NCBI GenBank assembly: GCA_010093995.1
Contig: ML992503.1
Coordinates: forward strand, 983,234-1,047,233
Length of the DNA: 64,000 nucleotides
Direction: 5' to 3'
From: Elsinoe ampelina
Taxonomy: Eukaryota
Both the position numbers and the translations under genes were made by a program. Shown piece by piece: positions 10,335-62,452 of this stretch (its first letter is position 1; the number at the start of each line of letters is the position of its first letter). The notes under the pieces are model-generated. The model did no database searches and was not told where the DNA came from. It saw nothing but the letters and a program-made list of their open reading frames with translations.

Positions 10335-10418
10335 GCAAGGGGTGTTGGAGCTCACGCGTGGTACGGGAGGTTTCGAGGGTACCTGATGCATATGATAAGG
10401 ACAGTATCCACACACTGA

Positions 10419-11364: not shown

Positions 11365-13927
11365 ATGTCCAATCCGCGAGAGAATTGGACGAAATGCGGT
11401 GATCGGTTCTATCGCAAGATTCAATTGTACACCTCAGTATTCGACCCAGATCTTGAGCTCGAGAACTACACCCTCGTAGGAGCTCCCTATAGCGGGGCAA
11501 TTGGTGCGGAACAGTCTCGTCTCATAGGCCTCCACTAATTCGAGCCAGCCCTCTATCGCGACAAGACCAAGGTCCATTCCTTCCGAGGGGCATCGAGCAC
11601 GAAACCTACTATCGACATATACACATGTGCCGGAACCCTCATCACTCGAATCAACGTAAGAGCATTGCGTCAGAGCTGGAACAGGAGACTGACAAGGGCA
11701 GTGGGACAAGGGCGAGATTAGGGGCCTGGGATGGTCAGAAGATGAAAAGCTCATCGTCGTGTCGCAAGATGGCACGGTCAGAGTGTACCGCGATCTCCAG
11801 GGCGACTTCGACCCGTTCACCTTAGGGCATAGCGCAGAAGAGTATGGAGTACAATCATGCAAGTTCTGGTCATCAGGCTTCGTTGCACTACTTGGGAACA
11901 ACCAGCTAGTCGCTGTCACGCGGTACAATGAGCCTCGACCCTCTGTCCTCGCGAGTCCGCCGTCCGACGAGGTAGTGTCCTGGGCTATCATACCGCCTGC
12001 CTTTACGCTGTCACGCTCGGTGGAGGCGCTGCTTGCGATCGGGAAGAGTATCATGACGATTGATGCGTCGGAGGCAGAGGATCGGATGCTACAGAATGGA
12101 CCATTCAGGCATGTCTCAGTCTCGCCGAATGGTAAATTTGTGGCGGTATATACTGAGGACGGCAAAGTCTGGGTCGTGACGAGCGACTTCCAAAACAGAC
12201 TCAGCGAGTATGACTCCAAAGTGAAGACACCACCTCGAGAATTGCAATGGTGCGGCAACAATGCAGTGCTGCTCCTCTGGGAGGACGAGATTCACCTGGT
12301 TGGACCGAATGGGGCTGCTTCAAAGTTCTACTACGACTCATTTGTGCACCTCGTGCCCGATCTGGACGGCACACGAGTTTTCACGAACGAGGTCTGCGAG
12401 TTCATGCAACGAGTACCGGACGAGTCGGAGGAGGTATTCAAGCTTGGGTCGACTTCGCCATCCTCGATATTACTGGATGCGCTGGACCATCTCGAAAAGC
12501 GTTCTCCGAAAGCCGACGACAACATACAGCTCATCCGGCCCCATTTGGACGAGGCTGTCTACACATGTGTCCGAGCTGCTGGACATGAGTATGCGGTCCA
12601 CTGGCAGAAGCAGCTGTTAAAGGCAGCTTCATTCGGCAAATCGGTGATTCCCCTGTTTCCAGACGTAGACGACTTCGTTGAGATGACCGAGACTCTCCGG
12701 GTGCTGAATGCAGGGCGATACTATGAGATTGGCATGCCGATCACTTGCGAGCAGTACATGCGACTCACGCCAGAACGACTTGTGCAGCGATTGATCAACC
12801 GGTCGGAATACCTTCTGGCCTTGAAGGTCTCAGAATTTATGCGACTACCGATCGACAAGATATACGTTCATTGGGCAAGACAGAAAGTTCGGAAATCTAC
12901 CGATGACGAGGAGACGATATGCCGAGATATCGTCGAGAAGCTCAAGACGAAGCGAGGGATCTCATTCGAGGAGATCGCACGTGCAGCATATGATGAAGGT
13001 CGTGGTGGGCTGGCTGTGGAGCTACTGGAACACGAGCCTCGCGCTGGAAAGCAAGTACCAATTCTGCTGAATGTCGAAGAGGATGCCCGAGCTCTAGACA
13101 AGGCAATCGAAAGCGGCGACACGGATCTGGTCTATCACGTCCTTCTCCATCTCAAGAACAAGTTACCTCTAGCATCCTTCTTCCGTACCATCAACAGCAG
13201 ACCAGTCGCAACAGCACTAGTTGAATCCTCAGCCATCGACCAAGACCAGGAGCTCCTCAAAGACCTCTTCTACCAAGACGACCGCCGACTCGACGGCTCC
13301 AATCTCCTCGTCACAGAAGCCATCCAAGTCGAAGACCCCACCGCCAAAATCGACAAGCTCAAATCTGCAGCCCGCATCCTTCAAGACTCGAAAGAGCACG
13401 CCTTCCAAGTCAAAGCCATCAGCGAAGCCCAAGTCCTCCTCAAAATGCAAGAAGCATTCGAGAACGACCTCAACGAGCACTTCTCCGGCCTCTCGGTGAA
13501 TGACACAATCTACAAACTCATCAGACTAGGCAACATCAAGCGCAGTCAGAAAGTCCAGTCGGAGTTCAAGGTCACCGACAAGATCTACTGGTGGATCCGG
13601 CTGCGAGCTCTGGTCAGCAGACGAGACTGGAAAGAGCTAGAGGAGATTGGGAAAGTCAAGAAGAGCCCGATCGGGTGGGAGCCGTTCTTCAGTGAGATAC
13701 TGAGTGCCGGGAATGCCAAGTTAGCGAGCACGTTTGTGCCGAAGTGTACTAACTTGACGATGGAGGAAAGGACGGAGCTGTGGGAGAAGTGCGGGATGTT
13801 GAACAAGGCGGGTGAGGAGGCGTTGAAGGCGAAAAACATGGCGCTGTTGCAGACGCTGAGGGGAAAGGCGACGGGGCAGCAGGCGCTGGATATCGATCGG
13901 ATGATTGCGCAGCTTAGTAGGAGGTGA
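11365..13927 (+). CDS. VPS16: Vacuolar protein sorting protein Vps16 (HOPS/CORVET subunit)
   Basis: ATG 11365 (MSNPRENWTKCGDRFYRK) with introns 11504-11548 and 11656-11701. Vps16 segments QKQLLKAASFGKS, ALDKAIESGDTDLVY and KKSPIGWEPF. Confidence 0.95.
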
Positions 13928-14185
13928 TTGTGTGGTTAGGCAGCAAGATGGATGGCATGGAGAGATACAGATGATACCCGGAATGCAAGCCAACGTACAT
14001 ACGAACCATGATCGACGGTGATCTCAATTGCTCAAGCAGATCTGATTCAGGATATCTATGGTAAAGATCACACTTACATGCCAACCATAATGACTTCTAT
14101 GCCCAAGCTTTTGACGCCCCTCCTGCCATGTATGCTCGATATCCAGCACAATGCTCCACCCTCTGTCCATACCCGAACGCAGAGC

Positions 14186-14994
14186 TCACTTCCCCAGCGT
14201 CAAGAACAACCTATCCCCCACATCCCCCAACCCGGGCTTGATCATCCCCTTCGCATCCGTTTCCCCATCCACCGCTCCAACCCAAAACTCCGTCGCCTCA
14301 GGCCACGTCCCACTCGCCTTCTGCAACCCACCCACACTCCCCAGCACACTCACGACCAATATCCTCTTAACCCCCCAGTCCTTGAGCGTGTCAATCGCCG
14401 CACTAGCCGTCGCACCCGTCGCGATGATCGGATCCACCAGAATGGCCAAATCGCTCGGTCCGCCCGACGAGTCCGTCTGCGACGCAGAGTGGTACGGCAG
14501 GTTGTTGTAGTACTCGACCGGTTGGAGGGTGGATTTCTCGCGGTACATGCCTAGATGGAAGACGGGGACGGGGTCGGGGAGGAGGGTCAGGAGGGGCTCG
14601 ACCATGGAGAGGCCGGAGCGGAGGATCGGGACGATGGAGACTTTGGCGGGGGAGATGGTCTCGGTGGTGTAGTCGTAGCCGATCGGGGAGGTGTCCTGGG
14701 AGTTTGTCAGTGGGAGGGGCAGTGGGTGGTGTCGGAGCTCGCCGATGAGGGGAATGGAGGAGAGATAAGGAGGCATTGAGGACGCAGGACGAGGTGAAGA
14801 AGGGTGAAACTTACGGTGCCGCTTGCTGTGACTGTTAGGCCGCTGGCGAGAGCTTCGTAGCCGACCATGAGGGCGATGTCGTGGACCAATTGCTTGGTTT
14901 CGCGGGCGTTGGTGGAGGAGCTGCGGAGCTGGGAGAGCTTCGCCCGGAGACAGGGATGCGAGGATACGTGGACGTTTTGAGGTAGGGATGCCAT
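14186..14994 (-). CDS. FUR1: Uracil phosphoribosyltransferase
   Basis: Two exons with an intron at ~14700-14814. Motifs VPILRSGLSM, ILVDPIIATGAT (PRPP loop) and PGLGDVGDRLF. Confidence 0.9.
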
Positions 14995-15498
14995 GGTTGA
15001 AGACCGAGTGGTAGAGAAGTGAGTGGGATCAGGGAAACAGCTCAAGGAAGAAGGTTGGGAGAAAGAAGAGGAATAGAAGTGTCTCATACAGTTGCTATCG
15101 GCGTTTGGAGTCGATCACTTAATGTCACCCGCTGCGAACCGTTGCAGGGTTTCGGCGCGGCGGTCCGTTAATCCGAAGCAGCGATGACTTCACCTCGCAG
15201 GAACAAGTTCGATTTGCGCTCAGGCAAATGTGGATCTCAGCATCTGATTGACGACCCTTGGATATGGCCGGCTGTTCGGCAGCATGCTGCTAGATACTGA
15301 ATGTCCAACATGATTTTTGCAGCTGTGTGGACCTCATATTCGACCCGAGATTGCTTGGATGCTGGGTTTCTCGTTGTTTACCACCAATGTGATGGCCGCG
15401 ATACGGAGAGGCAACAACACTACATGACACAGCCAGTATCTACATAGAACATCCCCCAAACGGTACACTGCGGGACTTCATTGCACGCCGAGACCATC

Positions 15499-16779
15499 AT
15501 GAGCGGCGTCAACGAGGTTCGCACACTACCACCTGCGGATTCGACCACAGATCGGCCACAACATGGTCAGCCTACCTCAGAACTGCACCTCGAGGATCAG
15601 AGCCCCGGTGATCGATCCTTTCAAGTCGACCAAGAGCCCTCGAAGCATTCCAGAGAACCACTCAATCCCTCCAAGCCTTCAGGGAAGCCTTCACATCTAC
15701 TCATCCAACTCTACATTATCAGCCATCTCACCCTCTTCTCCCTCCTCGGCACCCTCGCCCGCCTCGGCATCCAATGGCTCACGACCTACCCCGGCGCCCC
15801 CATCACCACCTCAGTCCTCTGGGCCAACGTCGGCGGCTCCTTTGTCATGGGCTTCCTCTCCGAAGACCGCCGCCTCTTCCAATTCCCCACCCACCTCTCC
15901 AAACCCACCATGACCTCCTCCGACCGCAAAGCCCTCCACTCCAAGCACAAAAAGACCATCCCCCTCTACATCGGCCTCGCCACTGGTTTCTGCGGCTCCT
16001 TCACCTCCTTCTCCTCCTTCATCCGCGACGCCTTCCTCGCCCTGTCCAACGACCTCCCCGCCTCCCTCTACCACCCCGTCGCCCCCGCCGTGCCCCCCCC
16101 GCGCTTCAGCTCCACCCACCCGCGAAACGCAGGCTACTCCCTCCCCGCGCTCCTCGCCGTGCTCATCTCCGAACCCGCCCTCTCTCTCTCCGCCCTGTTC
16201 GTAGGCGCCCACACGGCCCTCCTCCTGGACAAGTACACCCCCTCCCTCCCTGCCTCCGTCTCCCGCGTCCTCGACCCGCTCGCCATCCCTCTGGGACTGG
16301 GCGCCTGGCTCGCTGCCATCCTCATCGCCATCTTCCCCACCAACAGCGACTGGCGCGGCGAGGTGCTCTTCGCGCTCGTCTTCGCTCCGCTGGGGACGTT
16401 GGTGCGGTACTTCGTCTCGCTGCAGCTGAATTCACGCGTCAAGTCGTTTCCCGTTGGGACGTTTGCGGTGAATATCTGCGGTTCGGCGGTGTTGGGGATG
16501 GCGTGGGATTTGCAGCGGGTGCGGATTGGAGGCGTGCCGGGGGGAGGGGCGTTGGGGTGTCAGGTGTTGCAGGGGATCGAGGATGGGTTTTGCGGTTGTT
16601 TGACGACCGTGTCGACGTGGGTGGCGGAGCTTCAGGGGCTTAGGAGGGGGCATGCGTATAGGTATGCGCTGGTCAGTTTGGGGGTTGGATTGGCGACGAT
16701 GGTGGTGGTGATGGGGAGTGTGAGATGGTCTGTCGGGTGGGAGGCGCCGGTGTGTGTGACTGGGAGGACGAGTGTATGA
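15499..16779 (+). CDS. FEX1: Fluoride export channel FEX (two CrcB/Fluc domains)
   Basis: Two CrcB motifs: GLATGFCGSFTSFSSF and DGFCGCLTTVSTW. Also GTLAR and GTFAVNICGS; multiple hydrophobic helices. Confidence 0.9.
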   Translation: MSGVNEVRTLPPADSTTDRPQHGQPTSELHLEDQSPGDRSFQVDQEPSKHSREPLNPSKPSGKPSHLLIQLYIISHLTLFSLLGTLARLGIQWLTTYPGAPITTSVLWANVGGSFVMGFLSEDRRLFQFPTHLSKPTMTSSDRKALHSKHKKTIPLYIGLATGFCGSFTSFSSFIRDAFLALSNDLPASLYHPVAPAVPPPRFSSTHPRNAGYSLPALLAVLISEPALSLSALFVGAHTALLLDKYTPSLPASVSRVLDPLAIPLGLGAWLAAILIAIFPTNSDWRGEVLFALVFAPLGTLVRYFVSLQLNSRVKSFPVGTFAVNICGSAVLGMAWDLQRVRIGGVPGGGALGCQVLQGIEDGFCGCLTTVSTWVAELQGLRRGHAYRYALVSLGVGLATMVVVMGSVRWSVGWEAPVCVTGRTSV

Positions 16780-16841
16780 TCACTGATATACAGCGTTACG
16801 TTTTGATAGATCTTTTGTACATGATTCTATTTCTTCAACAT

Positions 16842-18880: not shown

Positions 18881-20076
18881 ATGTCTTCCTTTGCACGGCT
18901 GGTCCTGTCCACTGGACGGGCATCACTCCGACCATCCAGGAACCCTCTCCAGTATGCTCTTGGGTCCAAGGGCAATTCACAATTCCTCTCTGCTTCGAGG
19001 AACTACGCCACGGCCTTCGAACGAAACAAGCCCCACGTGAATATTGGTATGTCAGACTCAGACTCTTCTGGCGACCCCTCTGACCAAGTCTTTTAGGTAC
19101 CATCGGACACGTCGATCACGGCAAGACCACCCTCACAGCAGCCATCACGAAGCGTCAGGCCGAGAAGGGATACGCCAACTTCCTCGATTACGGCGCCATT
19201 GACAAGGCTCCTGAAGAGCGAAAGCGAGGTATCACCATCTCCACGGCCCACATTGAATACCAGACCGACAACCGCCACTATGCTCACGTCGACTGCCCTG
19301 GCCACGCCGATTACATCAAGAACATGATCACAGGAGCAGCCTCCATGGATGGAGCCATCATTGTTGTAGCAGCCTCCGACGGTCAAATGCCACAGACTCG
19401 TGAGCACTTGCTCCTCGCTCGCCAGGTCGGTGTCCAGCGAATCGTGGTCTTCGTGAACAAGGTGGATGCAATCGAGGACAAAGAGATGTTGGAACTGGTC
19501 GAGATGGAAATGCGCGAGCTCCTCTCCAGCTACGGCTTCGAGGGCGACGACACCCCTATCGTTCTCGGCTCCGCTCTCTGCGCCCTCGAAGGCAGGCAAC
19601 CCGACATCGGCACCGAAAAGATCGACGAGCTCCTCGCGGCTGTTGACGAATGGATCCCAACCCCCCAGCGTGACACCGAAAAGCCCTTCCTCATGTCCGT
19701 CGAGGACGTCTTCTCCATCCCCGGCCGCGGCACCGTCGCCTCCGGCCGTGTCGAGCGCGGTGTCCTCAAGCGCGACTCCGAAGTCGAGCTCGTCGGCAAG
19801 GGTGGCGTCCCCATCAAGACCAAAGTCACCGACATCGAAACCTTCAAGAAGTCCTGCGACGAGTCCCGCGCCGGCGACAACTCAGGACTCCTCCTCCGCG
19901 GCGTCAAGCGCGAAGACGTCTCCCGCGGCATGATCATCGCCAAACCCGGCTCGGCCAAAGCACACAAGAAGTTCCTCGTGAGCATGTACGTGCTCACCAA
20001 GGAAGAAGGAGGACGACACACGGGTTTCCACGGGAACTATAAGCCGCAGCTCTTCGTGCGGACAGCAGGTGAGTCA

Positions 20077-20119
<43 letters not shown>

Positions 20120-20399
20120 TGCACACATACCTCAGGACCCACGGGCAATCTCTTGCCTGAAATCTCCATACCCCGCATATCCGAAGCAAGGGATTACCCA
20201 CTAACGCAGCACAGACGAAGCAGCAACCCTCAACTGGCCCGAAGGCACCGAGGCAGACAAGATGGTCATGCCAGGCGACAACGTCGAGATGGTGTGCGAG
20301 ATCCACCGCCCGCTGGCCGTGGAGCAAGGACAGCGCTTCAATATCCGTGAGGGAGGACGGACGGTCGCTACGGGGTTGATCACGAGGGTGATTGAGTAG
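18881..20399 (+). CDS. TUF1: Mitochondrial translation elongation factor Tu
   Basis: Arg/Ser-rich presequence followed by [23 protein letters not shown] and NKVD. Introns 19047-19096 and 20069-20214. C-terminus [18 protein letters not shown]. Confidence 0.97.
20079..20119 (+). repeat. Poly-C homopolymer (41 nt) in TUF1 intron 2
   Basis: Uninterrupted C run starting 10 nt into the intron (donor GTGAGT at 20069). Confidence 0.95.
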
Positions 20400-20863
20400 A
20401 TGGCTTCCCGGCATGGGCGACGCCATGACTCGGACGAGAAGGGAAGGGAGATGGAAAGAAAGAGATGGGGTCCATGCTGCAAGGTGAGAGCTGGACCAGT
20501 GTATTCTAGTGTACAGCCAGAACAAGCTCTTCACTCGACCATGGGACATGGGTGTTCCGGACGGGAGGAGGGGGGCCATATACGTGCTAAGCGGGTGGAC
20601 GGAAGGACATTCGACTCTTCGGAACACTTTGTCTGATATAGATCTGCTTTTAATCTCCCCTTCGCGATGCCTGAAGAAGGGTATCGAGCGGGAAACACAC
20701 TACTTTTTGTGCTCGGAAAAGGGAACATGTAGACCAGTAGCAGCGACGGCGACAATGTATCAGAATCTCTCCTCATACTCCCACTACTACTCACTCTGCC
20801 CTTCCTGTCCTTGGTATCTGACAATTATCCATCCGCTGGCTATACCCCCGACAAACGGCGACT

Positions 20864-23478: not shown

Positions 23479-26400
23479 CTAGTTGTCCATACCGTCTAAT
23501 TCTATCAGCTTTCTGACCACATTCACCACTTGGTGGTCTCCAACGTCCATGCTCGGATCGTCTAGCTTCTTCTCGAGCAGTTCATCAAGCATTGCCCTCA
23601 ATCGACTGACCAGGACTCCTATCCTTGCCCATCCCCTGATCCTGATCCAGCCATCCACCAGCAGACCGCCGCCATTCTGTGCAGCCAAGGCTAGCGATCC
23701 GCAGAAGAGCAATAACGAGTAGGCATTGCACGGCGTCAGATCTCGCATGAAGATCTTGCTCGTGGCAATCTTGGTGAAGTAAGACATGTACGCCGTATTT
23801 GTTGGGAATGACTGGGCCGAGAATAGTGTACTGGATGGGTGGATGAAGACTCGGTCGTTGGTCGGACGATCCATGTCGGCCGTCTTGGTGAAGAACTTGA
23901 TTGTTCGTGCCTCCGGGTCTAGTGCCACAGAACCCGATACCGACGCAACATATTTTGCATCCGGAAACTCGATACGTGCGATCTGTGGCGTGAAAGAAGC
24001 GGCCACCAATGCTCGTAGCAACGTCTTATTACCGTCGTTCTTATTGTATCGCTGAAAGTTTGCCGAGCCAACATGGTAGTCGAAGGGCACGAACTGGATG
24101 TCCTTCAGGGTTGACAAGTACTGTGTTCTGTTGTTGGCGATGTCTTGGAGCGTCTGAGGAGAAAGGAAATTCTGACCGCACCATGCTCGAAGCATACCCA
24201 TAGGTTCGCCAGCGGCTCTCCGCTCCGACCACTCCTGATATGCTCGCAAGTCGCAGATCAAATCGCCACTGCCGTCGTAGAAAGCAGATCTTGCGGTCTT
24301 TGCCTCTTCCCGCTTGTCTTGTGGACTTACGAATGGGCTCTTGACACTCAGGATGGATGCAATGGTCAAGCAGCTCTCGAGACATCCAAATGTCGCTCCG
24401 ACCACAAGGAGCTTGCCGCATCGGAGATCAGCAGGAATCAGAGCCAAATGGCGACCAAGCGCAGTCAGATCATCGCCATCCAAGATGCCCATCCGATCCA
24501 AAATACTAAGCGCTGTCGAGATCGCAAGGACCTCGGGAGGTGTGATAGCTTTGCCCAAGAAGTCCTGAACGTCGTTGAGACCCATCGCCTTGACGGACAA
24601 GCACAATTGCTCAAGAGGAACTCGTTTGATCTCAGGTTCTGGTCGGTCCGCCATCTTCGTCGCTTCGAGATTTCGAGAGTAGAGTTTGTAGCATGTCCCT
24701 GCAGTGACACGGCCGGCTCGACCCCTGCGCTGCTTACAGGCCGCCTTCGATGCCCAAACCTCAGCTAGACGGACCATGCCAGCGATCGGGTCGAATGAAG
24801 TCTCCTTTACCTTCCCAGTGTCTATCACAGCAACCACGTCCTCGATCGTGATAGATGTCTCGGCCACGTTGGTGGCAGCGATGACTTTTCGCCGGCCTGG
24901 ACCAGCTCTTGGGAACACCTTTCGTTGCTCAACGGGCTGCAGAGATGCGTGCAGAGGCAGAGCGAGGAACTTTGACGACAGCCTCCGAATAGCTGTGAGG
25001 GTTCTGTCAATCTCTGCGACACCCGGCAGGAAGATAAGAATGGCGCCAGAGTCGCCCTCTCCTCTCTGTACCAAGTCCTGGTCGATATAATCGACCACAG
25101 TTGCGATCAGGTCGTAGTTGATTCTTGCTCCTACGGCACGGATAGCAGCGCCCATGTTGGCATCCGTGAGGTCATCTTCGTCCTCGTGACTGCCACGTGA
25201 CTGTGAAGCAAACCCAGTGGCATTCAGGACATCTTCGAGATACACATCAGTGACTGGGTGCGTCCTTCCAGCGATCTGCACTTTCGCCACAGTAGCTGAT
25301 CCGGCAAAGTAGTTTTCGAAAAGATCGGCGTCAAGAGTCGCGCTCATCAAGATCAGCTTGAGGTCTTTCCTGACTTTGAGGACGTCTCTGAGTAGTGTCA
25401 TTAAGAAGTCAGTGTCCAGACTCCTCTCGTGGACTTCATCGATGACAACGTGGCTGACGCCTTCAAGAGCTGCGACCACACCTTTCGCATCTCCGCCTGA
25501 TGTCTGTAGTCGCCTTAGCAGAACGCCAGTAGTGACGAAGGTGATTCTGGTCGTGCCAGGTTTCTGCCGAGATTCACCGCGAATGGAATACCCCACCTCA
25601 TGACCAACAGCAGAGCATCGTTCGTCCGCTACTCTGTCGGCCAGACCAAGCGCCGAGATACGTCGCGGTTGAGTGCATATAATGTTGACCGTCGCACCTT
25701 GCTTCTTCTGTATCATGTCGTCGAGTATGAATTGAACAGATTGCGTTGATTTACCGGATCCAGTCTCACCAGATATGATGGTCACTTGAGAAGTACTGAC
25801 AGCCTTTACCACTGCATCTTTGAGTTGCCAGGCCGGAAGTCTTTGCCTGATGTCGTTCATCTTCTTCTGCTCCGCCGTGTCCTGTCTGGCTTGCCACTGG
25901 GCGAGAAGTTGTTCAGATAGTTGCGGGGAAGGACGAATGGGTATGTTGTGCCGTGGCCCTCTAGGTGCTGTTCTTCTTGACTGCCTTTGACTCTCTGATG
26001 GTAGTCCGACTGCTCTAGCTATGCTCTTCAAGGTACCCGGGTTCTCAACGATGCTCGCGATGTTTTGTTCGAGCCAATCAATAAGTGGAAAGATCATCTG
26101 CTCACCAAGCAGATCCGCGAGACCTTCTTCTATACTTCGTCGAACAATGCTCAATCGAATGTAAGCTGGCAATTTTGCCTGCACTGAAAGTATCGGTCGA
26201 TGAGTAGGATAACCGGTTGGTGGTCTTCGTATTGACACCTCTGTCAGTCCGTGAGCTTGTCCTTGTATGTCAAGCTGTACAACCACAACATCTTTGCCAG
26301 ACCTTCGCAGACGCTCTCCGTATATCGACTCCAACACTGTAATCTCATCTGTCCAGAAATCGGGATCTGGTTCCTCACTTCCCACTCCGTTTGCTGTTTC

Positions 26401-27615: not shown

Positions 27616-27930
27616 TTGAATGAGAGGGGAGTGGGGTGGGAAATTCTAAGGCGAGATTCGAGGTTGGATGAGAAATATCACAGAACGTCACATTTGATGG
27701 GACCACACATGTGCAAAAGGCAGTTGTTTGATACAATAAAGCTGCCCACGCTTGACTTTCTATGCTACAGGTGCTTTTACTTTCCTCTACATCTGCTTCA
27801 GAAGTGTTCTGGTATGCCAATTCTCACTAGATTTTTCTGCCTCAGTCACCTCCCGCCCGTATGATCACATCAATATGTCACGGTCCCACACACACACCTC
27901 CAAAACCCATGCTCTTGTCAAGAATCACAC

Positions 27931-45741: not shown

Positions 45742-46911
45742 ATGACAACAGTCACCATCCCCTCCGACCCCACCACTCCCCTCGACGCCCCCGCTCCCGC
45801 CCGCACCACCCCCCTCTCCACCACCATCCGCATCGCAACCCGCAAATCCACCCTCGCGCGTGTGCAAACCGCCCTCGTGTCCGCGGCCCTAACCAAAGCC
45901 TTCCCGTCCTACACGACCCAAATCATCGCGCTCGACACAGTCGGCGACGTGGACAAATCCACGCCGCTGCACAGCTTCAACGCCAAAGCCCTGTGGACCA
46001 CCGAGCTCGAGGACCTGTTGGAGAAAGGCGAGGTGGACATGATCGTGCATTCGCTCAAGGACATGCCGACGCAGTTACCCCGGGGGTTGGTGTTGGGGTG
46101 TGTGACGGAGAGGGAGGACGCGAGGGATGCGGTGTGCATTGCCCCTGCTTTGGAGGGGAAAGGGGTCAAGACGCTGGGCCAGTTGGAGAGGGGGAGCGTG
46201 GTGGGGACGAGTTCGTTGCGGCGGTCGGCGCAGTTGAAGAGGAGGTTTCCTGGGTTGGAGTTTAAGGATGTGAGAGGGAATGTGGGGACGCGATTGGGGA
46301 AGTTGGATGCCGAGGGTGGGGAGTATGCGGCGTTGATATTGGCGGCGGCCGGGTTGAGGAGGTTGGGGTTGGAGAGGAGGATTAGTTCGTTGTTGAGTTC
46401 GGGGGAGGGAGGGGTTTTGCATGCGGTGGGCCAGGGGGCGTTGGGGATTGAGATTCGGGGGGATGATGAGAGGATGAGGGAGGTGTGTGAGGGGATTGGC
46501 GAGGAGAGGAGTTGGAGGGCGGCGTTGGCGGAGAGGAGTGTTATGAGGACGTTGGAGGGGGGGTGTAGTGTGCCGATTGGGGTGGAGACGGAGTGGGTGA
46601 AGAAGGGGACGGGGATTGCGGGTGCGGGCGCAGGGGTGGGTGTGAAGCCGAGTGCGGAGTATGATGGGGTTACGGGGCTGGCGAAGGATGAGGATGAGAG
46701 GAGTGATGAGTTGTTGCTGAGAGGGATTGTGGTTAGTCTGGATGGGCAGCAGGCTGTGGAAGCGGAGATGAGGAGGGTCATTAAGAGTAGGGAAGAGGCA
46801 GATGAGTTTGGATGGGACATGGCACAGAAACTTGTAGAGGGTGGTGCGGCAAAGATTTTGGAGGATATCAACCTCAATCGGAAGATTATACAAGAGCAAG
46901 GAGGTGCATAG
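45742..46911 (+). CDS. HEM3: Porphobilinogen deaminase (hydroxymethylbilane synthase)
   Basis: IRIATRKSTLARVQT, VHSLKDMPT, GTSSLRR, VRGNVGTRLGKLD and LEGGCSVPIG (cofactor Cys). Confidence 0.96.
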   Translation: MTTVTIPSDPTTPLDAPAPARTTPLSTTIRIATRKSTLARVQTALVSAALTKAFPSYTTQIIALDTVGDVDKSTPLHSFNAKALWTTELEDLLEKGEVDMIVHSLKDMPTQLPRGLVLGCVTEREDARDAVCIAPALEGKGVKTLGQLERGSVVGTSSLRRSAQLKRRFPGLEFKDVRGNVGTRLGKLDAEGGEYAALILAAAGLRRLGLERRISSLLSSGEGGVLHAVGQGALGIEIRGDDERMREVCEGIGEERSWRAALAERSVMRTLEGGCSVPIGVETEWVKKGTGIAGAGAGVGVKPSAEYDGVTGLAKDEDERSDELLLRGIVVSLDGQQAVEAEMRRVIKSREEADEFGWDMAQKLVEGGAAKILEDINLNRKIIQEQGGA

Positions 46912-47812: not shown

Positions 47813-47850
47813 CCAGGTTGAGCTACAGGAAGGACTTTGACAGCGGGGAC

Positions 47851-49138: not shown

Positions 49139-51137
49139 ATGGCGAGATCACAGAGGAAGCGACAAGCGCGACTTGAATTCACTCCACTACCATCTTCTTC
49201 ACCCGCGGCCGCCACCTATAATCAGCAAATTCGTGATCGAGCGGCGGCAGTGGGTCTACAAGGATCGCCGAATCGTAGCAAGCGCCGAAAGATCACGCAT
49301 GCCTCAACAAATGGAGGCGACAGTGAGCTTTGTGAGTCTTTACTATCAGACCAGTATGTGAGGATGAAATCTCATATGCTTAGCTGCCCTACCTACGCCC
49401 GATGCTTCAAGTGCACAGCCTGAGCACGGCACCGAAACCATCACTCTAGACAGCGACAGTGATGATCCTCTACCACTACTCCCCTCCCGCATCCGTCGGA
49501 ACAAGAAAGCATATCAAACCACTTTGGATCTGAGGGGCCCAAGAACTTCCGAAGACTCTGCGAAGCAGCAGCTTTCATCGCCACTACGCAGGAAGATGAA
49601 TTCTTCGCCGGCACCTACGCCTGACAGTGGCGCATTCTTCCGCAGGAATTCTCCTCAGCTCAAAGCTCTGCCTCATGCGAATACACGATCAAAGAGGTCA
49701 CACGTACCAACCGCGAGCGACAGCGATGAGGATCTTGAGGTTCTTCCGAACAGGAAGGCTTCCGACAACTTCATCGAGCTGAGTGGAAACGACGACGACG
49801 ACGACGACGACTCTGACCAGATGCCGATCACCCCAGCGACCAAACGACATCGAGGTTCCCAGAAGCTCACCATTCAGGAGTCGTCGGATGAATCTGAGCT
49901 GGAGGACGAGCCTCCGAAGAGCTCGCGACTCAGGCGAGGACGGCGGAAGGAGATATCTGACGTCGAGAAATCCGCCTCGGAGGGGTGCGAGGATGATCAT
50001 CCGCGTCGATCGTCTGGCCATGCGCTTACGCAAGAAGAGAAACAGGAGCTTGAGGACGATCTCAACGACCTCAAGTCGAGCTCGAGCGAGGAAGAGACCA
50101 CAAGGCGCTCTCAAAAGCCTGCCAAATCTGAAAGGGCGCTTGCTCTAGAGAGACTCAAGCGTGCCAGAGCAGGGACTAGAGAGCCGCACAAGGAGGTCGT
50201 GAACATCGAATCAGACGAAGACGAAGAGTTCATCGATCCAGAGTCCTCCGATGACGACCAGGTGCAGGAGGTCATACCTCAAAGCACTGCAAGGGAGATA
50301 TTTGACGCCAACGAGGACGACGAAGACTTTCTGGCCGACGATGGTGACGAGACGTTAGGTGCACCAGATGGTCTGCCCCTCCAATTCACACGCTACGCCT
50401 CCATGAAGCCGAGCGAGCTTTTCCATTTCGCCGTCGAATGGATGGTTCAAAAAAAGATCAACCCTGGGTTCAACATCACAGACGAAATCTACGACCTCGC
50501 ATTCAAGAAGCTTGACGACGAAGTCAAAGGCCTCGTGGGATCAAAATTCGAGTCCTCTGCATGGAAGCCAGACTTCATCTTCGCCCTACGCGCCAGACCA
50601 GACATGGCCAAAGCCAGAATGGACCGCTCCCAGCCCGACCTCATGTACATGGACAAGTGCGACGCCTGCAACCGATCTGGCCACTTCCCTAGCTACGAGG
50701 TCCAGTTCCAAGGCAAGCCTTACCACCCTCAGACCCTCGAAGAAGTCGAGCAACACGAAGATTCCGACGACGAAAGCGACACGGAAGGCACCATGCGCGA
50801 CTCTCGCGGCCAGGTTCTCCCACCGGCCACCCACTCCTTCTTCGTGGGGAAGCACTGCATGGCGAACGCAGACATGGCGCATTCGCTGCAGCACTGGCGT
50901 TATCACCTCTACGAGCACGTCGTGGAGAAGCTGGGCGAGCTGGGGCACATGAAGCCGGCCAAGATCGTGGAGAGAGACGGTTGGGGGGAGCCGAAGCGGA
51001 GGAAGTTTGCGAATAAGCTGGTGGATCAGTTTTCGGATATGGGGACGGTGAAGGAGCTGTATTCGGGGTTTAAGCAGCAGGTGGATGATGCGAGGAATTT
51101 GAAGCAGGGGGGGAGGTGGCAGGGGGATTCGCCATGA
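49139..51137 (+). CDS. DUF4211 (CCDC82-like) domain protein with long acidic disordered N-terminus
   Basis: FAVEWMVQKKINPGF, SKFESSAWKPDF..ALRARP, CDACNRSGH and AHSLQHWRYHL. Intron ~49324-49383. Confidence 0.75.
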
Positions 51138-51594
51138 GGGAGATTGGATGGAGGAGGGGAGGGTTTGGATGAGAGATGAAGCAGGAACTGTACGCAGTTG
51201 GGAGTCACTGAGGTCGAGGAACGCACAGGAATAATGGTTGCCTCGGAGCGGGGTCGATACCCATTTCGTTATGATATATACCTCGATGGCATGTACTCGT
51301 CTCGCAATGCTCCGCGAGCAGACCTTCTGACTATGATATCCGCTCCTCGTTTTCTTCTCCAATCCTGAGTCAGGGAGTCTGCTTCGTAGACGTCCTCTCC
51401 CTGCTATTTCCAGGACTCAGTGACTCGCCGAGACACTTGTAGCTCGCCGTTATGGCGGCAGTATCCAGCCAAGGTACCCATCATGTGTCGCTGTTTTCCC
51501 TCAATCGTGGACCTGAACCTTCTATACCCCCGGTGCACTGGCTTCTTTTCGTCTTCTTCTTCATCATGTCTCAACACAAGCCCTTCACATGTGC

Positions 51595-51982
51595 TCATCT
51601 GATCGTCCTCCCCTCCCCCTCCCTCCCCATCGTCTTACCCTTCGCCCCCTTCTTCCCAGGCGGACCCTCACTCATGATCCTCTCCAGCCCCAGATCCCTC
51701 CAAGCAGGTTCCTTCTGCCTCTGCGTCGCTCTCTGAATCCCAAACGCCGCGTGCTCGTTGGGGACTACGTCGTCTTCGTCCTCTGGGTTCAAAGGCTGAT
51801 GTTGTGGCGGGACGAGGATCTCTTCGGGCGAGAGATTGGTGCGGGTGAAGTCCTCTAAGAGGTCGGCATGGTGGCTCTTGTGCAGGTGGAGGTAGGTGTG
51901 GGAGGAGTCGCGGGTCTGGACGTGGTGATCAGCCAGGGCTAGCAGGGGAGAGGCCAGGCGAGAGAGAGGGGAGAGGTACCAT
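51595..51982 (-). CDS. APC13: Anaphase-promoting complex subunit Apc13/Swm1-like
   Basis: An ATG-only first exon (51980-51982) splices to TRDSSHTYLHLH..VPPQHQPLNPEDEDDVVP..HAAFGI..AWRDLGL. Confidence 0.75.
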
Positions 51983-52309
51983 CGTTTCTTGAGCTGGGTT
52001 AGACGCACGTCGGTCAAGCAAAGCTGTATTTCTCGGTGATGTACCTGCATCTGTTTACCATTCTTCATCCTCAAGGTTCCCCACACATCAACTCCGGCCT
52101 CGGATGAGCTCGCAGAATCCACTAAGCGCTCTCGAGCGGCCCCGGCCCGAAGCGCGCGCGGCTCTTCCAAGTCTTGGCTCACTTTGATTTTGGATACTCG
52201 CCTCCAGAATTTCCAGACCCGCACAGCAGAACACGCACTCCGTCGACGACAGCAACCACCTTTCGCGCTCCATCACAACTCGGACAGTCGCAAATCGCAC
52301 ACCGCAATC

Positions 52310-55346: not shown

Positions 55347-56900
55347 GAAACAACAACCCTTCTCGATCAATTCACTCAAGCATCTCAATTGGAACACACG
55401 TGGATGGCACGATAGGCAGTGTTCCGCTGCTCTCCTCCAAATACCCTATCTGCCTTTCAGAGTCGGATCAGCGTTTGTTTTGTTTCTTTTACCCGTGGAG
55501 TTGTCGTCGGGGTGGATAAAAGTGGAAGTGCAGCGACCGCGAGTCCGTCATCATCCCTCTCCGTCACCCATCATCATCATCGACGAGCGTTATCGGTCAA
55601 GGAGTGCTTTGGCTCCTGCAAGGTGGAGTTCTTGACTGCGAAAAGGTGTGGCTCTCTTCTTTCCGATTGCAGGAGCGAATGTCTGGTCGACTTGGACATT
55701 GACCATTCGACCGGACGGGGACTTGCCTGCAGTCTTTCAGCGTACATGAGTGGCTTCTTCCTTCACTATCCCAATCAGAAGTCCAGAGATAGTTCAGAGG
55801 CAGAGATGGTCGACCTTTTTTCATCATCCAGAGATCGAATATGTAATAGTCTGTTCAAAACCCTGTGGACCCGATGTCTATCCGTGATGCCTCGGTGATA
55901 TTAATCGTACTCAGGATGCGACGTGCAGCATACACGCATGCCGTAAGGTACCGTTCTATGCCGCGTGTTCCAGAGGACTCTGAAACCTCTACCAGAATAG
56001 CAAAAGGCGGAAATCCCACGTGGTGAGCCGCGACATTTCAGTCTCGACATGGGTACCATGGGACGACATACTCCGTGCGTGCCTATTGTGAGGACGCTTA
56101 GCAGTCATGAATAATAATGTGTTTCATCAGTGGCATGCTCGCCTGCAAAAAAAGGTACGAGATCTACTGTTGCCGAGCTGTGATTGATCGGAGAAGACGC
56201 CTAGCTCGCATCTAGAGAAGATGGCAAGAGATCCGTGACCATCACGCGGCCACCACTGTCTGTCTCTTTGCAGAGCGGAAGCGGTCAAGGAGGAGTGCAT
56301 CGGACCAGGACACAGGCCCACTCACACACACGGTGACACGCGTTGCCTTGATTCCTGGCCCTGAAGTACGGAGATGGATGTGATTCACAGCTCGCGTCCT
56401 TGGAGTTCGTGATGGACCTTGAACCGTGGAACAGGCTACATGTTAATACCACACCCTTGTGCAATCCCTGTCGCAGAGTCAGGCAACTCAATCACCTCCA
56501 TGGTACTATAACACCGTGTCATTCCCGCGCTGACCACCGCGAATCTCTTCCCATTTCCCCTATTATTATACACCACACCGTCCATCCCCCTGACTCGACA
56601 CCGGTCCCCTTTCTGACAAAAAGGACCCAATCACGCCGACTCTGCCAACGCGCATTACACCCATCATCAGACAGCCTTGCGCTCCTTCAGCAAATTCTCC
56701 AGCGACCACCGACCTAGCCACTTCCCTTGCATTACAGTATACAAAATCCCTCCACACTCTCACGCCCGAAAGCGCATTCGAGGTCATCAATCCCACGTGT
56801 CTGCGGCCCCCGCATCAGCCCTACCAGGCACACGTCCGTCCCAACACCCACCACCCATCCATCTTCTTCTTCCCACACCAAACCAACCCCGACACCAAAC

Positions 56901-57895
56901 ATGGCCACCACCACCGCCGCCCAAGACGAATTCAACGCCCTCTTCTCCTCCAAGAACCAAATCTCCTCGCGCCACCACCCCTCCGACTCGCCCCTCGACC
57001 GCTCCGACGCCGCCTCATTCCTCGAAGACGACTCGGCCTCGGACCACACCCCGCCCGCCTCGGCGCACACCGTCACCAACAACGCCCGCGCCAAATACAC
57101 CGTCCCCTCGGCGCGGCACCAATCCAACACCGGCCCCAAGGGCGTCATCACCGATGCGCAGGCGTACCGCGCCGCCGCGCGCGCCAGGACGAGCGAGGGG
57201 ATGAGTCGGGCGTCGTTCCAGGCGCAACGCGAGGGGGATGTGCGGGTGACGCAGCCGTATGTGCCGGGGGTGGGGGAGGTGAAGGTTTTGGAGGAGGAGG
57301 ATGAGGAGGAGGAGGAGGGACTGGACGGGGAGGACGATGAGGTGTTTATGGAGAGTTGGCGGCGGGAGAGGTTGAGGGAGTTGCAGAATCATAACGGGAG
57401 GAGGATCGGGAGTGCGGGGCGGGAAGGGGGGAGTAGGAAGAGGGGGTTCGGCGGGCTGGTGCCGGTTGATGGGACGGGGTTTTTGGAGGCTGTGGATGGG
57501 AGTGGGAGGGAGACGGTGGTGGTGGTTTATATTTATGATGATCAGGTATGTTGGAGTGGATGACGGAGGGTGGAGGGTGATTGCTGACTGGTGGATAGTC
57601 TGAGGTGTCGGATTTGATCGAGGTGTGTGTGCAGGAGTTGGCGAGGAAGTATATCAATACGCGCTTCGTCAAGCTGCATTATCACGACGCCGAGATGGAG
57701 CCTGCTGGAGTGCCGGCTGTGTTGGCGTACAAGGGGGGCGACAAGTTCGCTGGTCTCGTCCCGGTGTTCAACGAGATCCCAGACGACGCGGACGTCACGG
57801 CATCGACGCTGGAGAAGGTCTTCCAGAAGTGAGTCTCTCTTGATCCGCGGTCAAAAGGGTGATGCTGACATATCAACAGGCATCAAATCCTCTAG
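56901..57895 (+). CDS. phnA: Phosducin-like protein (PhnA/BDM-1; G-beta-gamma chaperone)
   Basis: TAAQDEFN, NTGPKGVITDA (phosducin helix 1), an acidic stretch and the thioredoxin-like VVVYIYDD..RFVKLHY..EMEPAGVPAVLAYKGGD. Two introns. Confidence 0.9.
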
Positions 57896-58358
57896 ATGTC
57901 AAGCCCGACGACGACAGCGATGACTTTGCTTGCGTTTTGCGGGTTGTAAATGGCACTAGACATATGACTACCACATGCTTGCTTCCGTACGAGGAGGAAA
58001 GAAGGGAAGTGGAGATACCCCCTTGGATACGCCGTTTTCTACAGGCTAGATATATGGGACTTTGTAATGGGCGGGCATGGGAGTTGGAGGCAAAGGGCAT
58101 GTACGCTTGGTATAAGAGAGGAATGTAATACTACCACACCATCGTCCTGATCACCATCCTTTGCACCTCCGCGAGCAGCCGGTGCCAGAGATACAGCATT
58201 ATAACAGGTGGCCCTGGTGGTTTCTGACCTGGCATCACTGGCACATGAATTTCCGCGCCTGCCATCAAGATCAAATGGTGGATACGGCTTCGCTTCCAGG
58301 ATTTCTCCGCAGGTCATTTTGCCATTACCACATCCTGCTGATATTCCCCTACCCAACA

Positions 58359-59394
58359 CTAAACAACCATAACCCCACCCACCACCAACCCCGCCACCAC
58401 CCCAGCCAGCATCCACCCCAAACCCCCCCTCCCTGTCCAATTCTGCCTCAACGAAGACGAAGCAGAATCACTAACCTTCACCCTCGCCAACCCGGTCTTC
58501 ACCACCCCTACCTCCCCCGTATGCGTCCCCAACCCTATACTACCGGATTGCACCACCGGCGTCTCATCCGTCAAGTCGGAGCTGAAGGTTTGCGTGAAGG
58601 TGTATGCTACTTGCACCACGTTGCCTGGCGCGATGAGAGAGGGGAGGTAGTATACCGTTACGGGGGAGGCTTGTTGGGGGGCTGTCGCTGCGGCGGCGGC
58701 GGCTGCTTGCTGAGCTGCTGTGCCTGCTGTGCCGGCTGCTGGGGTGGCGACGGGGACCGCGGCGGCGTTGGCTGCGGCGTTGGCTTGAGCTGCCGCTTGG
58801 GCTTGAGCTTGAGCCTGCACGGCAGCTGCTTGTGCCGCGGCCGGAGTGACAGCCGCTGCGCCTGCTGCTCCTGCTGCTGCTGCTGGCGTTGTTGCGGCCG
58901 CGGCTGCTGCTGCTGCGCCGGGAAGGCCTCCTGCGTTAGGGTCGGCGACGACTGCGATGCCTTGTCTTGGGCTAGGAGAGGTCAGATCTGGACGAAGGAC
59001 ATGGAAAGGGGAGCCTGTATCAAAGCAAATACTTACATTAGATGGTTGGGAAGGCGCCCGATGCCGTGGACTGATGGAACTCCTGGGATGGCGGGGATGA
59101 TGGCATTGATGTCCGGCTCAGCGTGAAGGGTCGGGATGAGCGTGTCTTGTGCTTGTTGTCTTTGCAGGCATTAGTGATATGATTTCGACGATGAATCCGT
59201 GTCGCTGCATACAAGGCATCTCGTTTCTCTGCATCTGTCCGTCGTGATGTCGACCTGCTGCCTGACAGAGAGTCTAGGAGATGTTCGATCAAGCTATCTG
59301 AGTCGAGAACGCCTAGGTCGAAACCCGCTCCTGGAGTTGGAGTTGCGGTGGCCAACGATGCCAGTAGCGATACCGGGAGGAGCGAGAACCTCAT
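58359..59394 (-). CDS. Secreted/GPI-anchored Ala/Gln-rich cell-wall protein with KRE1-like C-terminal domain
   Basis: Signal peptide, a KR site, two in-frame introns and poly-Ala/AQ low complexity. YTFTQTFS..SGSIGLGTHTGEVG (Kre1-like) precedes a hydrophobic C-terminus. Confidence 0.75.
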
Positions 59395-61130
59395 TCTGTC
59401 GTTATAGGGTCGTCAACTAGAAATACAATAGAATTACGGCGTGCCCGTGGCTTTGAAGATGCTATGTTTGGCAGGAACGTAGAGATATCAGAAAACAGTA
59501 CGATGCTAAAAGAGTGTCTTCAAAAGAGTGACGGATGGGGGAACGACCAGACCACAACAACAGTAAGCACGAGGCACAAGAACGAAGCTCAAAGTCGGTG
59601 TACCTACAAGAGTCAAAAGGCAATGGAGGAATATTACCTCCACCCCTCGCACGAACCGTGAACGACCAAACAACACTATCATCGCAGATCCAACGTCGTT
59701 GAGCCGCAGGACTGGACTGATCTGGAGTAAGCGCCGCCATGACAGGACTGCAAGTGGTGGCGGCGGAGATGGAGTGTCAGCGGTCGCCCCTGATGAAGTG
59801 CAACGGTTTGATACGTCCTGGACCAGAAGTGTCTTGGCGGCTTGGCAGGGAATTTCGAGACACGACGACCAAGGAGGCGAGATGGCGAACATCTAGTACC
59901 GAGGGTGGAGATCTTGTTAGAGCATCTCACTACTTGATGAGGATGATTATCGAATGGCTAGTTCTTCTCTTCTACACGGCTGATGTGATGGCGATTGTAG
60001 CAGTCTTAGGGTGTAACCCTAATTTTGAGCCAATCAACATTCGATTTCTCCAACCTCGAACGCCACCCATGTCCATGTCCAATTGTATCTTGACTTCTCT
60101 CGCTTCTCGATTTCGCCTTCCACTACTCTTCTACATCACAGCAGAGGCAGTGATCCTCCTGGCTGCACAGCGACTCTTCGACCTCATTCCCGTTGCCCGA
60201 CATGCTTGCCAATTGAAATTGACAGCCCTGACCTGCGGTGGGTTTGCTCGTGCCGATCAAACGCAAGCTATGTGGTCTGAGATGTTCACCTTCGCAATCA
60301 CACTTGACCTAGGATGAAGCCGAGGCGGCAGACGTGGCTTCTAGTCTGGCACAACCTCAGGTTTGTTGCTGCCCAGACCGAGAGTTGGGGCAGCCTCGAA
60401 GAAGAATGGCATGTGCTTTTGGTATGCATACCTCATGGGAGGGTGCTTGGTAATCGTCGCCGTGCTGCGCGCCATGGGGTTTGAAGTCGAAAGAGTGGTT
60501 CCTGTTGTCCGCCTGCCATTCAGTGCTCACATCTCTGGCTTCGCTACCCTGAGCTGCCGTTTCTTTCCCCTTACCTTTACCGGTATGTGGAATGGGTTCG
60601 ATCGAGGTGCCAGACTCTGAGAGGGGGTTCTTCCATTTGGTACCTGAGGTATATAAAGTCGAGGAAGTCCAGGGCCGGTTGAAAATTTGGCAGTCGCTAC
60701 ATAATGGGTTTACGTTGATTCGCGAGGTGCAGGGAGGACTGCAGTACAAGCTTGTCTGATCTGGAGGGTCAATTTTGATGGTTGAAACGGACACTTGATA
60801 CTGTGTAAGTAGTGCGCGAGTCTTAAGGGAGGAACTTTAGACTGGACGTTGTGATCTATGATTTGTAGGAATAGAACAATATCGATGCTTCTCAGATGAC
60901 TTACAGAATGCCGCGTCTCGAATAGGATAGAGGATGAAATTTTTGACGTTTCATTCATTTCAGCAAAGTTGCTAGTCATAATACATACATATCCTTGATC
61001 TTTAATGAGATCAAATCCTCCTTCTCTCGGCTGTCCGGCCGCCCATATGCCGTCCCAGAGTAACAGCTTGATGCCACATAACATCAAGCTTCTTAATGGA
61101 TCTGTGTCCCAGCAAATTTCCCCATCCTTC

Positions 61131-62452
61131 TCATGTCAACCCCAGCCTCACAAGCAGGAATCCTCCCAGAACTGCTGACGCCAGCAATGGCTGCATCCGG
61201 ATCCTACTCCCCTCCCCCTTCTGATCCGGATCACTATCCCCCTCAGTCCACCCCGTTCTGTTCCCAACAAACGGCGTCCTCCCCGTCTCATTCGCACCTG
61301 CTCCCAGCGGACTAATCCCTTTCTCCCAGTCCGGCTCCTTCACCTCGCACATCTCTCCCACTCCCGGCACACAATTGCCCTCAAACACCCTCGTCCTCCC
61401 TTCATCGCTCGAATTGAAATACGCCTTGACGTAGCTCACCGTCACCACGCTGTCCCTCTCAGGCGGACCGCCACTCCATTTCTCATCTCCATTACTCCAG
61501 TGGTTGAGGATCAGGTGTCCTGGTTCACGCGGGATGACGCTCGTGTTCGTGACGGTCCAGAGCGGTTGGCCGTCGGCGTAGAAAGTGACACTGTCGGGTA
61601 GCCAGTCGATGCGGTATTCGTGATAAGATGACGAGGGGTCGAAAGGCAGAGGGTGGACCTTGAAGAAAGGTGTAGTAGAGGCGTCGAAACCGCGGGAGGC
61701 TGAAAGAGGGGTCTGGATGACGAGGTTGAGTGGGGCGGGAGAGGTGAGGTTTTCTGGTGTGAGCTGGCGGGAGAGGAATTCGAGGTCAAGCTCGGAGGTG
61801 TCGTTGCGATACTAGCTCAATTAGTAGAGAGCAAAGAGGGGGGCGAAGCGAAGTGTTACCCAGAAGAAGGCGGCGCATGTGCCTGGGGTGCTGCTCATTT
61901 TGATGCCGACGCGAAAGGACCCGTAGAGCATATCGTCTCGGAGGACGGCTATCTCGCTGGTGCGTACGGAGAGGTCATCGCCGGTGAGGATGAGATTGTT
62001 CTTGTCGCGGGCCCAAAGCTGAAGCCCAGGATCTCCCCCATTGACGCCGTCGCCGCCCCAGTCGTACTCGTTGCGAATAGGGTTGACGATCACATTCTCT
62101 ACCTGCGCTGCTTTGCCGTATGGTCCTCGAGCGTCGGCAGCAGAGACATTGAATGCTTGAGCTTGCCAGCCGAAAGTTTCGATGCGCTCAGTATTGGAAG
62201 TGGTGTAGTTGGGTAGGGCGTAAACATGTAGAAAGTCTGTCTCGATAGCTTCGGTAAAGATCTGTTGCGAGGACTGTGACGTGCCGATGCCAGGTGATGT
62301 GGACATTGGAACGGAGTAGCCACAATCGCATGCAGAGTATGCTATATACTGTCAGAGCATGTGATACTCACGTGCCAGGAGCCGATGATACCTTTGGCGG
62401 CGAGACTGATTAGCAGTGAGCACTGCCACGCCAGCGAGGTAATGACCCGCAT
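61131..62452 (-). CDS. Glycoside hydrolase family 16 protein, secreted, probably GPI-anchored
   Basis: Signal peptide, then ACDCGYS, DMLYGSFRV, the catalytic ExDxE motif SELDLEFLS, HEYRIDW and NHWSNGD..WSGGPP. Two introns; hydrophobic C-terminus. Confidence 0.9.

Follow-up and report, generated by a model that had tools for sequence, protein, structure and literature searches.

The sequence analysed here, referred to as the window, is a 64,000-nucleotide (nt) stretch of the Elsinoe ampelina genome (GenBank assembly GCA_010093995.1, contig ML992503.1, positions 983,234 to 1,047,233 of the forward strand), and all island counts for E. ampelina hold within it. Thirteen of its genes, from a PARG-domain gene near the left end to a GH16 gene near the right, contain an island in which the plus strand is strongly C-rich and then, on crossing a centre, strongly G-rich (Table 1). 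Gene names given in an earlier note on this DNA agree with the Pfam matches, its 'HO' being heme oxygenase.

Islands were located with a switch score for the C-to-G change, using 400 nt per side and treating z>=6 as a strong peak, and 13 such peaks were found across the window. Neither single-base nor 3-nt shuffles reached z 6 (0/100 each; maximum 4.6), and shuffles of 60-nt blocks gave a mean of 0.41 strong peaks and at most two. For the gene-level analysis, 26 partial gene models were built by hand, and the fourfold-degenerate bases were shuffled within each gene 2000 times. Positions 3600-11000 and 28900-30200, which lack a Pfam match, carry no gene models, and the codon table omits the 3' exon segments of MKT1 and PFK26. 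Joints in an RNA-like run confirmed three introns and roughly placed a fourth within 45300-52700; the RNA-like contigs were used for extent and joints only. The C-to-G switch stood at the floor of p=0.0005 in 13/26 gene models and at p>=0.02 in the other 13, while the reverse, G-to-C step reached p<0.002 in a single model. Islands were thus all-or-none among genes, half of the models having none in coding sequence, and their existence is confirmed. The earlier note had claimed about 12 islands, and all 12 of its switch positions lie within 60 nt of a strong peak; its list was incomplete, the island at ~2090 in the PARG-domain gene having been overlooked. Its proviso that silent-site skew might be no more clustered than in codon-shuffled genes does not apply, given the 13 genes at the floor p value.

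Table 1. Islands of C-to-G switching in the window, with the genes that contain them
Gene (strand, position) and part	Extent	Switch	z peak	Remarks
PARG-domain gene (-, 1838-3490), 3' part	1650..2700	~2090-2180	2094	
VPS16 (+, stop 13927), 3' end	13130..13960	~13560-13600	13540	1.7 kb upstream in gene neutral
UPRT (-, 14186-14994)	14070..15100	~14480-14520	14479	Convergent with VPS16; intron skewed likewise
FEX/CrcB (+, 15499-16779)	15550..16790	~16360-16390	16389	
TUF1 (+, stop 20400)	19100..20600	~19950 (silent sites); ~20250 (all bases)	20241	Broader and weaker
DHX57-like helicase, 4.1 kb (-, ATG 27615), 5' end	26400..27670	~27180-27270	27179	
Heme oxygenase (-, stop 35996)	35870..37250	~36330-36390	36391	
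HEM3 (+, 45742-46911)	45480..46900	~46010-46060	46009	RNA-like contigs span 45535-46971
DUF4211 gene (+, stop 51137), 3' end	50500..51250	~50840-50900	50846	
APC13 (-, stop 51595)	51300..52050	~51750	51746	Convergent with DUF4211 gene; RNA-like contig reaches 51232
Phosducin (+, ATG 56901), 5' half	56450..57750	~57180	57187	
KRE1-like (-)	58150..59200	~58570-58630	58627	Convergent with phosducin
GH16 gene (-, stop 61131), 3' end	61050..61950	~61470-61550	61500	

The TUF1 switch proposed in the earlier note, at 20250, holds for all bases and not for silent sites, because a poly-C run in an intron pulls the all-base switch. This pure run of about 41 C (20079-20119) is in the second TUF1 intron, within the C arm. 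Weaker C-to-G switches (z 4.3-5.6) were found at 18355, 21150, 28170, 29455, 31750, 35460, 42510, 44810, and 52450, mostly near the ends of genes (MKT1, TRAP-alpha, PFK26, TOM40, arrestin, and RPS29), and they form a continuum beneath the 13 strong islands.

Base composition was compared between arms, defined as fourfold sites 50-550 nt from the centre, and background. On the sense strand, the upstream arm had C 0.65, A 0.14, G 0.12, and T 0.08 (n=990), the downstream arm had G 0.74, T 0.10, C 0.08, and A 0.07 (n=558), and the background had A 0.25, C 0.30, G 0.23, and T 0.22 (n=3118). At two-fold sites, C fell from 0.89 upstream to 0.24 downstream and G rose from 0.42 to 0.93, the background for each being 0.63. 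Taken together, the two site classes show G winning over A, C, and T on the G-rich strand, and T winning over C. Within 600 nt of the centre fourfold GC is 0.73-0.83, against about 0.5 past 700 nt, the half-width of an island being ~650 nt (a patch of ~1.3 kb); skew is highest 200-400 nt off centre and fades by ~700-1000 nt, and at fourfold sites it reaches up to 0.9. The substitution bias is mirror-symmetric about the centre, with strands whose 5' ends face the centre moving to G and T and the opposite strands to C, and it looks non-selective.

The unit of this pattern was examined in windows picked solely for strong C or strong G content. For strongly C windows the neighbour on the right was G-rich in 9/10 cases (mean +0.36) and the one on the left was near neutral (+0.06), and strongly G windows had a C-rich left neighbour in 7/9; 30 non-redundant fungal loci showed the same asymmetry more weakly (44% vs 22%; 55% vs 19%). 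The unit is therefore a C|G pair and not a G|C flip between genes, and such flips were rejected as the true centres. In the long genes (DHX57, VPS16, DUF4211, and PARG) both arms lie at one end and the remainder is near neutral: the sense strand of DHX57 is C-rich, then G-rich, then neutral for ~2.5 kb, and those of VPS16 and DUF4211 are neutral, then C, then G. The neighbour windows and these neutral gene bodies support the proposal, made in the earlier note, of a strand-asymmetric process mirrored about a point.

Non-coding bases share the skew. Introns in sense-G arms are G-rich (phosducin first intron, C3 G23; KRE1-like, C6 G21; RPS29, C6 G18 and C5 G19), and 14 segments of untranslated region (UTR) total C 861 vs G 360 on the C-rich strand. 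Conversion through cDNA and RNA editing were ruled out because the introns are skewed as well. Amino-acid usage follows the arms, with Gly at 13.4% in G arms vs 6.1% in background and Pro at 8.1% and Thr at 8.3% in C arms vs 6.0% each. C was lost whichever base followed it on the 3' side (C in 11/33, 1/21, 15/77, and 6/32), and repeat-induced point mutation (RIP), or any methylation-driven or CpG-context C>T change, was ruled out, the loss being context-free and GC being raised.

All 13 centres lie inside coding sequence. Ten are located 150-404 nt before the stop and those of DHX57, HEM3, and phosducin 269-435 nt after the ATG, some of the starts and stops being estimates; the polarity of these three is the same as that of the other islands. 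The last 250 coding bases are G-biased in 24/27 genes, and the mean gene profile moves from a skew of -0.14 at 500-750 nt upstream to +0.24 in the last 250 nt, while real 5' ends in the window are C-biased or neutral downstream of the start. In HEM3 and APC13 the outer arm ends near the transcript end. The switches are gene-anchored, and independence from genes is not supported. The independence from gene orientation that had been pointed out is trivial: a C-then-G pattern is its own reverse complement, so that its occurrence on either strand is uninformative.

The islands are a local extreme of the fungal skew described by McLean and Tirosh in 2011 (PMC3315797), in which genes carry opposite GC skews at their 5' and 3' ends, fourfold sites, UTRs, and amino-acid choice are affected, and the cause is left unexplained. 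As in that work, the sense strand is C-biased upstream and G-biased near the stop, which agrees with the mean profile of the window, and the islands also touch fourfold sites, non-coding flanks, and amino-acid usage. The published skew is, however, a gene-averaged gradient that correlates negatively with GC content, whereas here a discrete two-armed patch of ~1.3 kb is present in half of the genes and its GC is raised. Also unlike the published average, the bodies of long genes are neutral, three 5' islands have a sense-G inner arm, and A/T at two-fold sites flips too; a monotonic 5'-to-3' gradient with an intermediate middle is not seen in DHX57, VPS16, or DUF4211. Since the gradient of McLean and Tirosh is an average over genes, the islands may be its source.

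Recurrence was examined in 80 metagenomic VPS16 loci, 79 of which were long enough for scoring. At least one island was called in 35/79, giving 75 calls, many from near-identical loci; 33 were kept after about 28 duplicates and 14 calls unassigned to a gene end were dropped, and the kept rows are not independent. For 30 of the 33, the 3' end of the open reading frame is no more than 550 nt away (median 335), where 12 would be expected under a uniform distribution. An island at the 3' end of VPS16 is again present in Lecanoromycete-like loci (L023-25, L038, L073, and L076-80) and in L030 and L026, and locus L040 has a 5' island of 58 C/5 G followed by 6 C/32 G. Among the loci scored, the VPS16 island was not found in nearer relatives of Elsinoe (L001-3, L041), in Aureobasidium-like loci, or in most Teratosphaeriaceae-like loci. 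The VPS16 island is thus patchy across ascomycetes. Convergent partners often both carry an island (VPS16/kinesin in L023, L038, and L073; PUL/eIF4E in L022), as do VPS16/UPRT, DUF4211/APC13, and phosducin/KRE1 in the window. The 5' part of VPS16 in Aureobasidium-like loci (L010/L011/L015-17) has a C-rich zone (33-37 C vs 6-8 G at fourfold sites) but lacks a G arm to match, which is a one-sided form of the skew.

HEM3 was followed through its protein sequence. The amino-acid footprint score of its G arm is +57 here; four Elsinoe/Sphaceloma relatives score +54, +47, +37, and +22, Myriangium scores +8, and 114 other homologues score 0 +/- 9 (maximum 43). The HEM3 island was thus gained within the Elsinoe clade and long retained. 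At the switch point of this gene (46029-46063), the sister species (X14, X15) lacks 33 nt and has 2 other letters instead, which creates a frameshift; this is the only plain deletion joint among those listed for the sister species in 7.4 kb. Organism C (X12) is gap-free there, and the Elsinoe batatas protein P0005 has an out-of-frame HEM3 stretch matching the frameshift of the sister species. Because HEM3 is normally essential, the frameshifted lineage may hold a second copy; the E. fawcettii HEM3 match carries the name 'protein 2'. The length lost can be set beside Spo11 double cuts, which begin at ~33 nt (bioRxiv 10.1101/2019.12.18.881268), although this is one event only.

Mutation bias and fixation bias were compared through divergence. 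The sister species differs from the window at 84/911 nt in the HEM3 G arm and at 175/1665 nt in the island-free neighbours of HEM3. Estimated UTR or non-coding and non-synonymous differences were subtracted by hand from the per-piece totals, which left ~69 silent differences in the arm (one gene, a rough correction, and a frameshifted sister HEM3). Models calibrated on the island-free neighbours predict 29-40 under fixation bias, 43-60 if the bias was lost in the sister species, and 57-70 under mutation bias. Among the metagenomic loci, fourfold divergence was 46/137 in the C arm vs 33/174 for L077/L078 and 11/126 vs 19/167 for L073/L070. Summed by hand over eight locus pairs, arms had 49 differences vs 38 expected at the background rate, and over five Lecanoromycete-like pairs 25 vs 22.5; L022/L021 showed the opposite trend (0/77 in arms vs 12/184). 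The lowered silent substitution expected in arms from pure fixation bias at equilibrium was not seen in HEM3 or in the locus pairs. Pure selection and pure conversion are disfavoured, and a mutagenic process, with or without conversion, fits. A same-species comparison run (X4) differs from the window at three or more sites; at one, 50708, that run and the sister species share T, which makes the C of the window a derived, silent replacement of T; this single site lies in the DUF4211 C arm, and the change is in the direction of the island.

Close locus pairs carry possible signs of recombination at the centres. Over 12 kb, L073 and L076 are ~0.4% divergent, and change points in the density of their differences (11954, 13247, and 18932) fall near centres at 12045, 13110, and 18835; in L023/L025 a change point at 766 falls near a centre at 845. 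The L073/L076 differences, among them an indel and a multi-base cluster, are gathered in short, 4-7% divergent tracts at two centres (11955-12323 and 12646-13246), separated by 317 nt that hold no single-nucleotide polymorphism (SNP); polarised with distant outgroups, the differences have mixed directions. In six pairs, both as post hoc tests, SNP density within 300 nt of the centre exceeded that of the flanks at 9/11 centres, and the summed left/right density step at centres gave p=0.049. Outside the called islands, L073 17363-17451 differs from L076 by 9 SNPs in 90 nt, 8 of them C-versus-T on one strand, a cluster like RIP or single-strand damage.

The explanation favoured here, which we hold tentatively and regard as plausible rather than probable, is that the islands are long-term footprints of recurrent break repair or gene conversion near gene ends. 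Chromatin or transcription would place the break site ~150-500 nt inward from a gene end, in most cases the 3' one and frequently in a convergent pair, and the break at the centre would be resected both ways. The C-rich strands would then be the 3' overhangs, and the G-rich strands those that are resected and remade. Re-synthesis of the strands with 5' ends at the break would be error-prone, with poorly corrected G/T misinsertion, and in the heteroduplex formed by the 3' overhangs C-containing mismatches would escape conversion more often than G-containing ones; both steps would yield C on the left and G on the right. Repair synthesis can leave misinserted G and T uncorrected. In yeast meiosis, repair of C/C is three- to five-fold poorer than that of the other mismatches, and G/T is the best repaired (PMC3218862), so that C would be favoured on the 3' overhang strand; we infer that poor repair may extend to C:A and C:T mismatches.

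Break repair of this kind fits the width of the islands, their GC rise, their all-or-none occurrence, and their patchiness among lineages. The GC rise over a tract-like width and the mirror symmetry are traits of a meiotic recombination hotspot with biased conversion, and arm divergence that is not lowered is as expected if conversion comes with mutagenesis. The likeness to yeast lies in a local GC rise over a length like that of conversion tracts (PMC3649680) and in a mismatch-repair preference that would give the observed polarity with the break at the centre (PMC3218862). The yeast conversion bias is, however, weak and strand-blind, with no G-versus-C skew reported in the accessible parts of these two papers. 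In Zymoseptoria, also a Dothideomycete, hotspots are frequent and include intragenic, coding DNA, but they are poorly shared between sister species, whereas the islands recur in orthologues (PMC5844332). Crossover intermediates in yeast move to the 3' ends of convergent genes (bioRxiv 10.64898/2026.03.13.711646). The double-strand-break and resection idea of the earlier note survives as biased repair synthesis and heteroduplex repair; deamination of resected overhangs is not supported, as it predicts the opposite polarity.

A number of observations weigh against break repair. Anchoring to gene ends is tight, down to the stop of the outer arm near the transcript end in HEM3 and APC13. The sense-G arm is the stronger, with odds shifts of 12.8 for G over A and 6.5 for T over C and only 4.5 for C over T and 2.1 for A over G in the sense-C arm, while a purely break-centred process predicts equal arms. 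With 24/27 genes G-biased at their ends, a general gradient tied to transcription may have the islands as its tail. For the HEM3 G arm, an equilibrium under pure conversion bias would give 29-40 silent differences, vs the ~69 estimated. The SNP tests were devised after L073/L076 had been viewed, and this pair supplies 3/11 centres; two of the 11 show no SNP excess, five centres lie more than 150 nt from any change point, a SNP cluster is present at the VPS16 3' end in the island-free pair L011/L010 as well, and a mutation hotspot also gives raised SNP density. Yeast Spo11 hotspots lie in promoters. In Zymoseptoria, recombination is highest in intergenic DNA, and GC-biased conversion, tested there in intergenic DNA, is very weak or none (PMC5844332). 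Little is understood of the part that sex plays in E. ampelina (PMC8295512).

Several of these points are explained better by mutagenesis coupled to transcript ends, a local form of the mutational hypothesis of McLean and Tirosh, which we regard as possible but doubtful. It holds that the last ~500 nt of a transcribed gene expose the non-template strand through pausing and R-loops, giving C>T and A>G, that abasic sites filled with C give changes to G, and that a convergent neighbour, through antisense or read-through transcription, leaves the opposite strand exposed just upstream and so produces the C arm. Rev1 inserts C opposite abasic sites. Gene-end anchoring (10/13 centres near the stop in the window, 30/33 near a 3' end in other fungi) and the stronger sense-G arm are better accounted for in this way than by break repair; many islands lie in convergent pairs, and the HEM3 rate best fits the mutation-bias model (57-70 expected, ~69 estimated). 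Work in yeast documents abasic sites and C>T and A>G changes associated with transcription (PMC4608483). Two separately localised processes would nevertheless be needed for one mirror-symmetric unit, half of the genes have no island in coding sequence, and 5' ends are C-biased or neutral, the opposite of an initiation-linked G bias. Deamination alone raises T, but T falls in the G arm (0.10 from 0.22 at fourfold sites), and the short divergent tracts at centres are not explained by transcription itself. In DHX57 the sense-G arm occupies 450-1200 nt past the ATG, away from any gene end and followed by 2.5 kb of neutral gene body, and transcript-end mutagenesis fails there unless a hidden termination site is present. 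At 47225-48838, one RNA-like contig (X4 record 17) spans the convergent DUF7053 and HNT3 genes, neither of which has a significant island, and suggests that their 3' ends overlap.

Replication initiation sites, suggested in the earlier note, would share the point symmetry of the arms and the polarity of the bacterial origin flip. That flip runs from C/A to G/T and is replichore-wide; the sign is the same here, but the skew decays within ~1 kb and lies inside genes. Licensed helicases can also be pushed by transcription. Ordinary origins did not fit, as the sawtooth is missing: fourfold skew 1.0-2.5 kb right of the centre, for example, is +0.00 to +0.23 in minus-strand genes and -0.39 to -0.56 in plus-strand genes, varying with the strand of the gene rather than with the side of the centre. 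The 13 centres, where GC is 0.52-0.71, had neither an AT-rich element nor an A/T run, and no 6-8-mer was shared among them above shuffles; there would also be one strong site per 5 kb, every one in coding sequence. An asymmetry limited to the first few hundred bases, for example through prolonged exposure of the lagging-strand template at firing, is the only form of origin effect still possible, and it is improbable.

Selection for RNA fold-back, G-quadruplexes, codon usage, or protein composition is very improbable: amino-acid usage is strongly shifted and the C-rich and G-rich arms are loosely complementary, but nothing beyond composition was found in folding energy (z -2.4 to +2.3 without trend in 10/10 islands tested of the 13, in 500-nt windows with 20 synonymous shuffles each), in canonical G-quadruplex motifs (14 vs 26 expected from local composition), or in inverted repeats (short, low-complexity, and out of register in 7 regions covering 8 islands), introns share the skew, silent divergence is not reduced where fixation bias predicts about half, and most HEM3 orthologues lack the amino-acid shift.

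Beyond the window, it is conceivable, though we would not call it likely, that many filamentous ascomycetes have fixed recombination or break-repair sites, a few hundred bases inside gene ends, that leave a footprint of C on the overhang and G on the new strand. No literature on discrete, mirrored local islands, and no later explanation of the 2011 gene-end skew, was found in a search from which subscription papers were mostly absent. The average gene-end pattern was already known; new here are the hierarchy of bases, the tests of arm pairing and of substitution rate, and the clustering of polymorphism. Discrete, strong islands with sharp centres turn the unexplained gene-end skew into a site-by-site question, and the mechanism is directly testable. 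If break repair is the cause, hotspots could be read from a single genome, the 2011 skew would be an average of break-repair footprints, and amino-acid change would be driven by this process even in an essential enzyme like HEM3. Whatever the cause, codon bias, third-position GC, and protein composition are distorted, as the HEM3 G-arm score illustrates, and this can mislead expression prediction, selection tests, and phylogenies.

Two further features of the window were recorded. At 5000-10350, ~5 kb of A-rich plus-strand reading frames are interrupted by stops and frameshifts and have no Pfam match; by eye, 5900-6450, 6600-7100, and 8550-9150 appear to be three diverged copies of one unit, and the region is possibly a decayed repeat or mobile element. 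In VPS16, positions 12640-12770 (alignment columns 440-490) encode several unusual residues where all other aligned VPS16 proteins are conserved, which are either lineage-specific changes or assembly errors.

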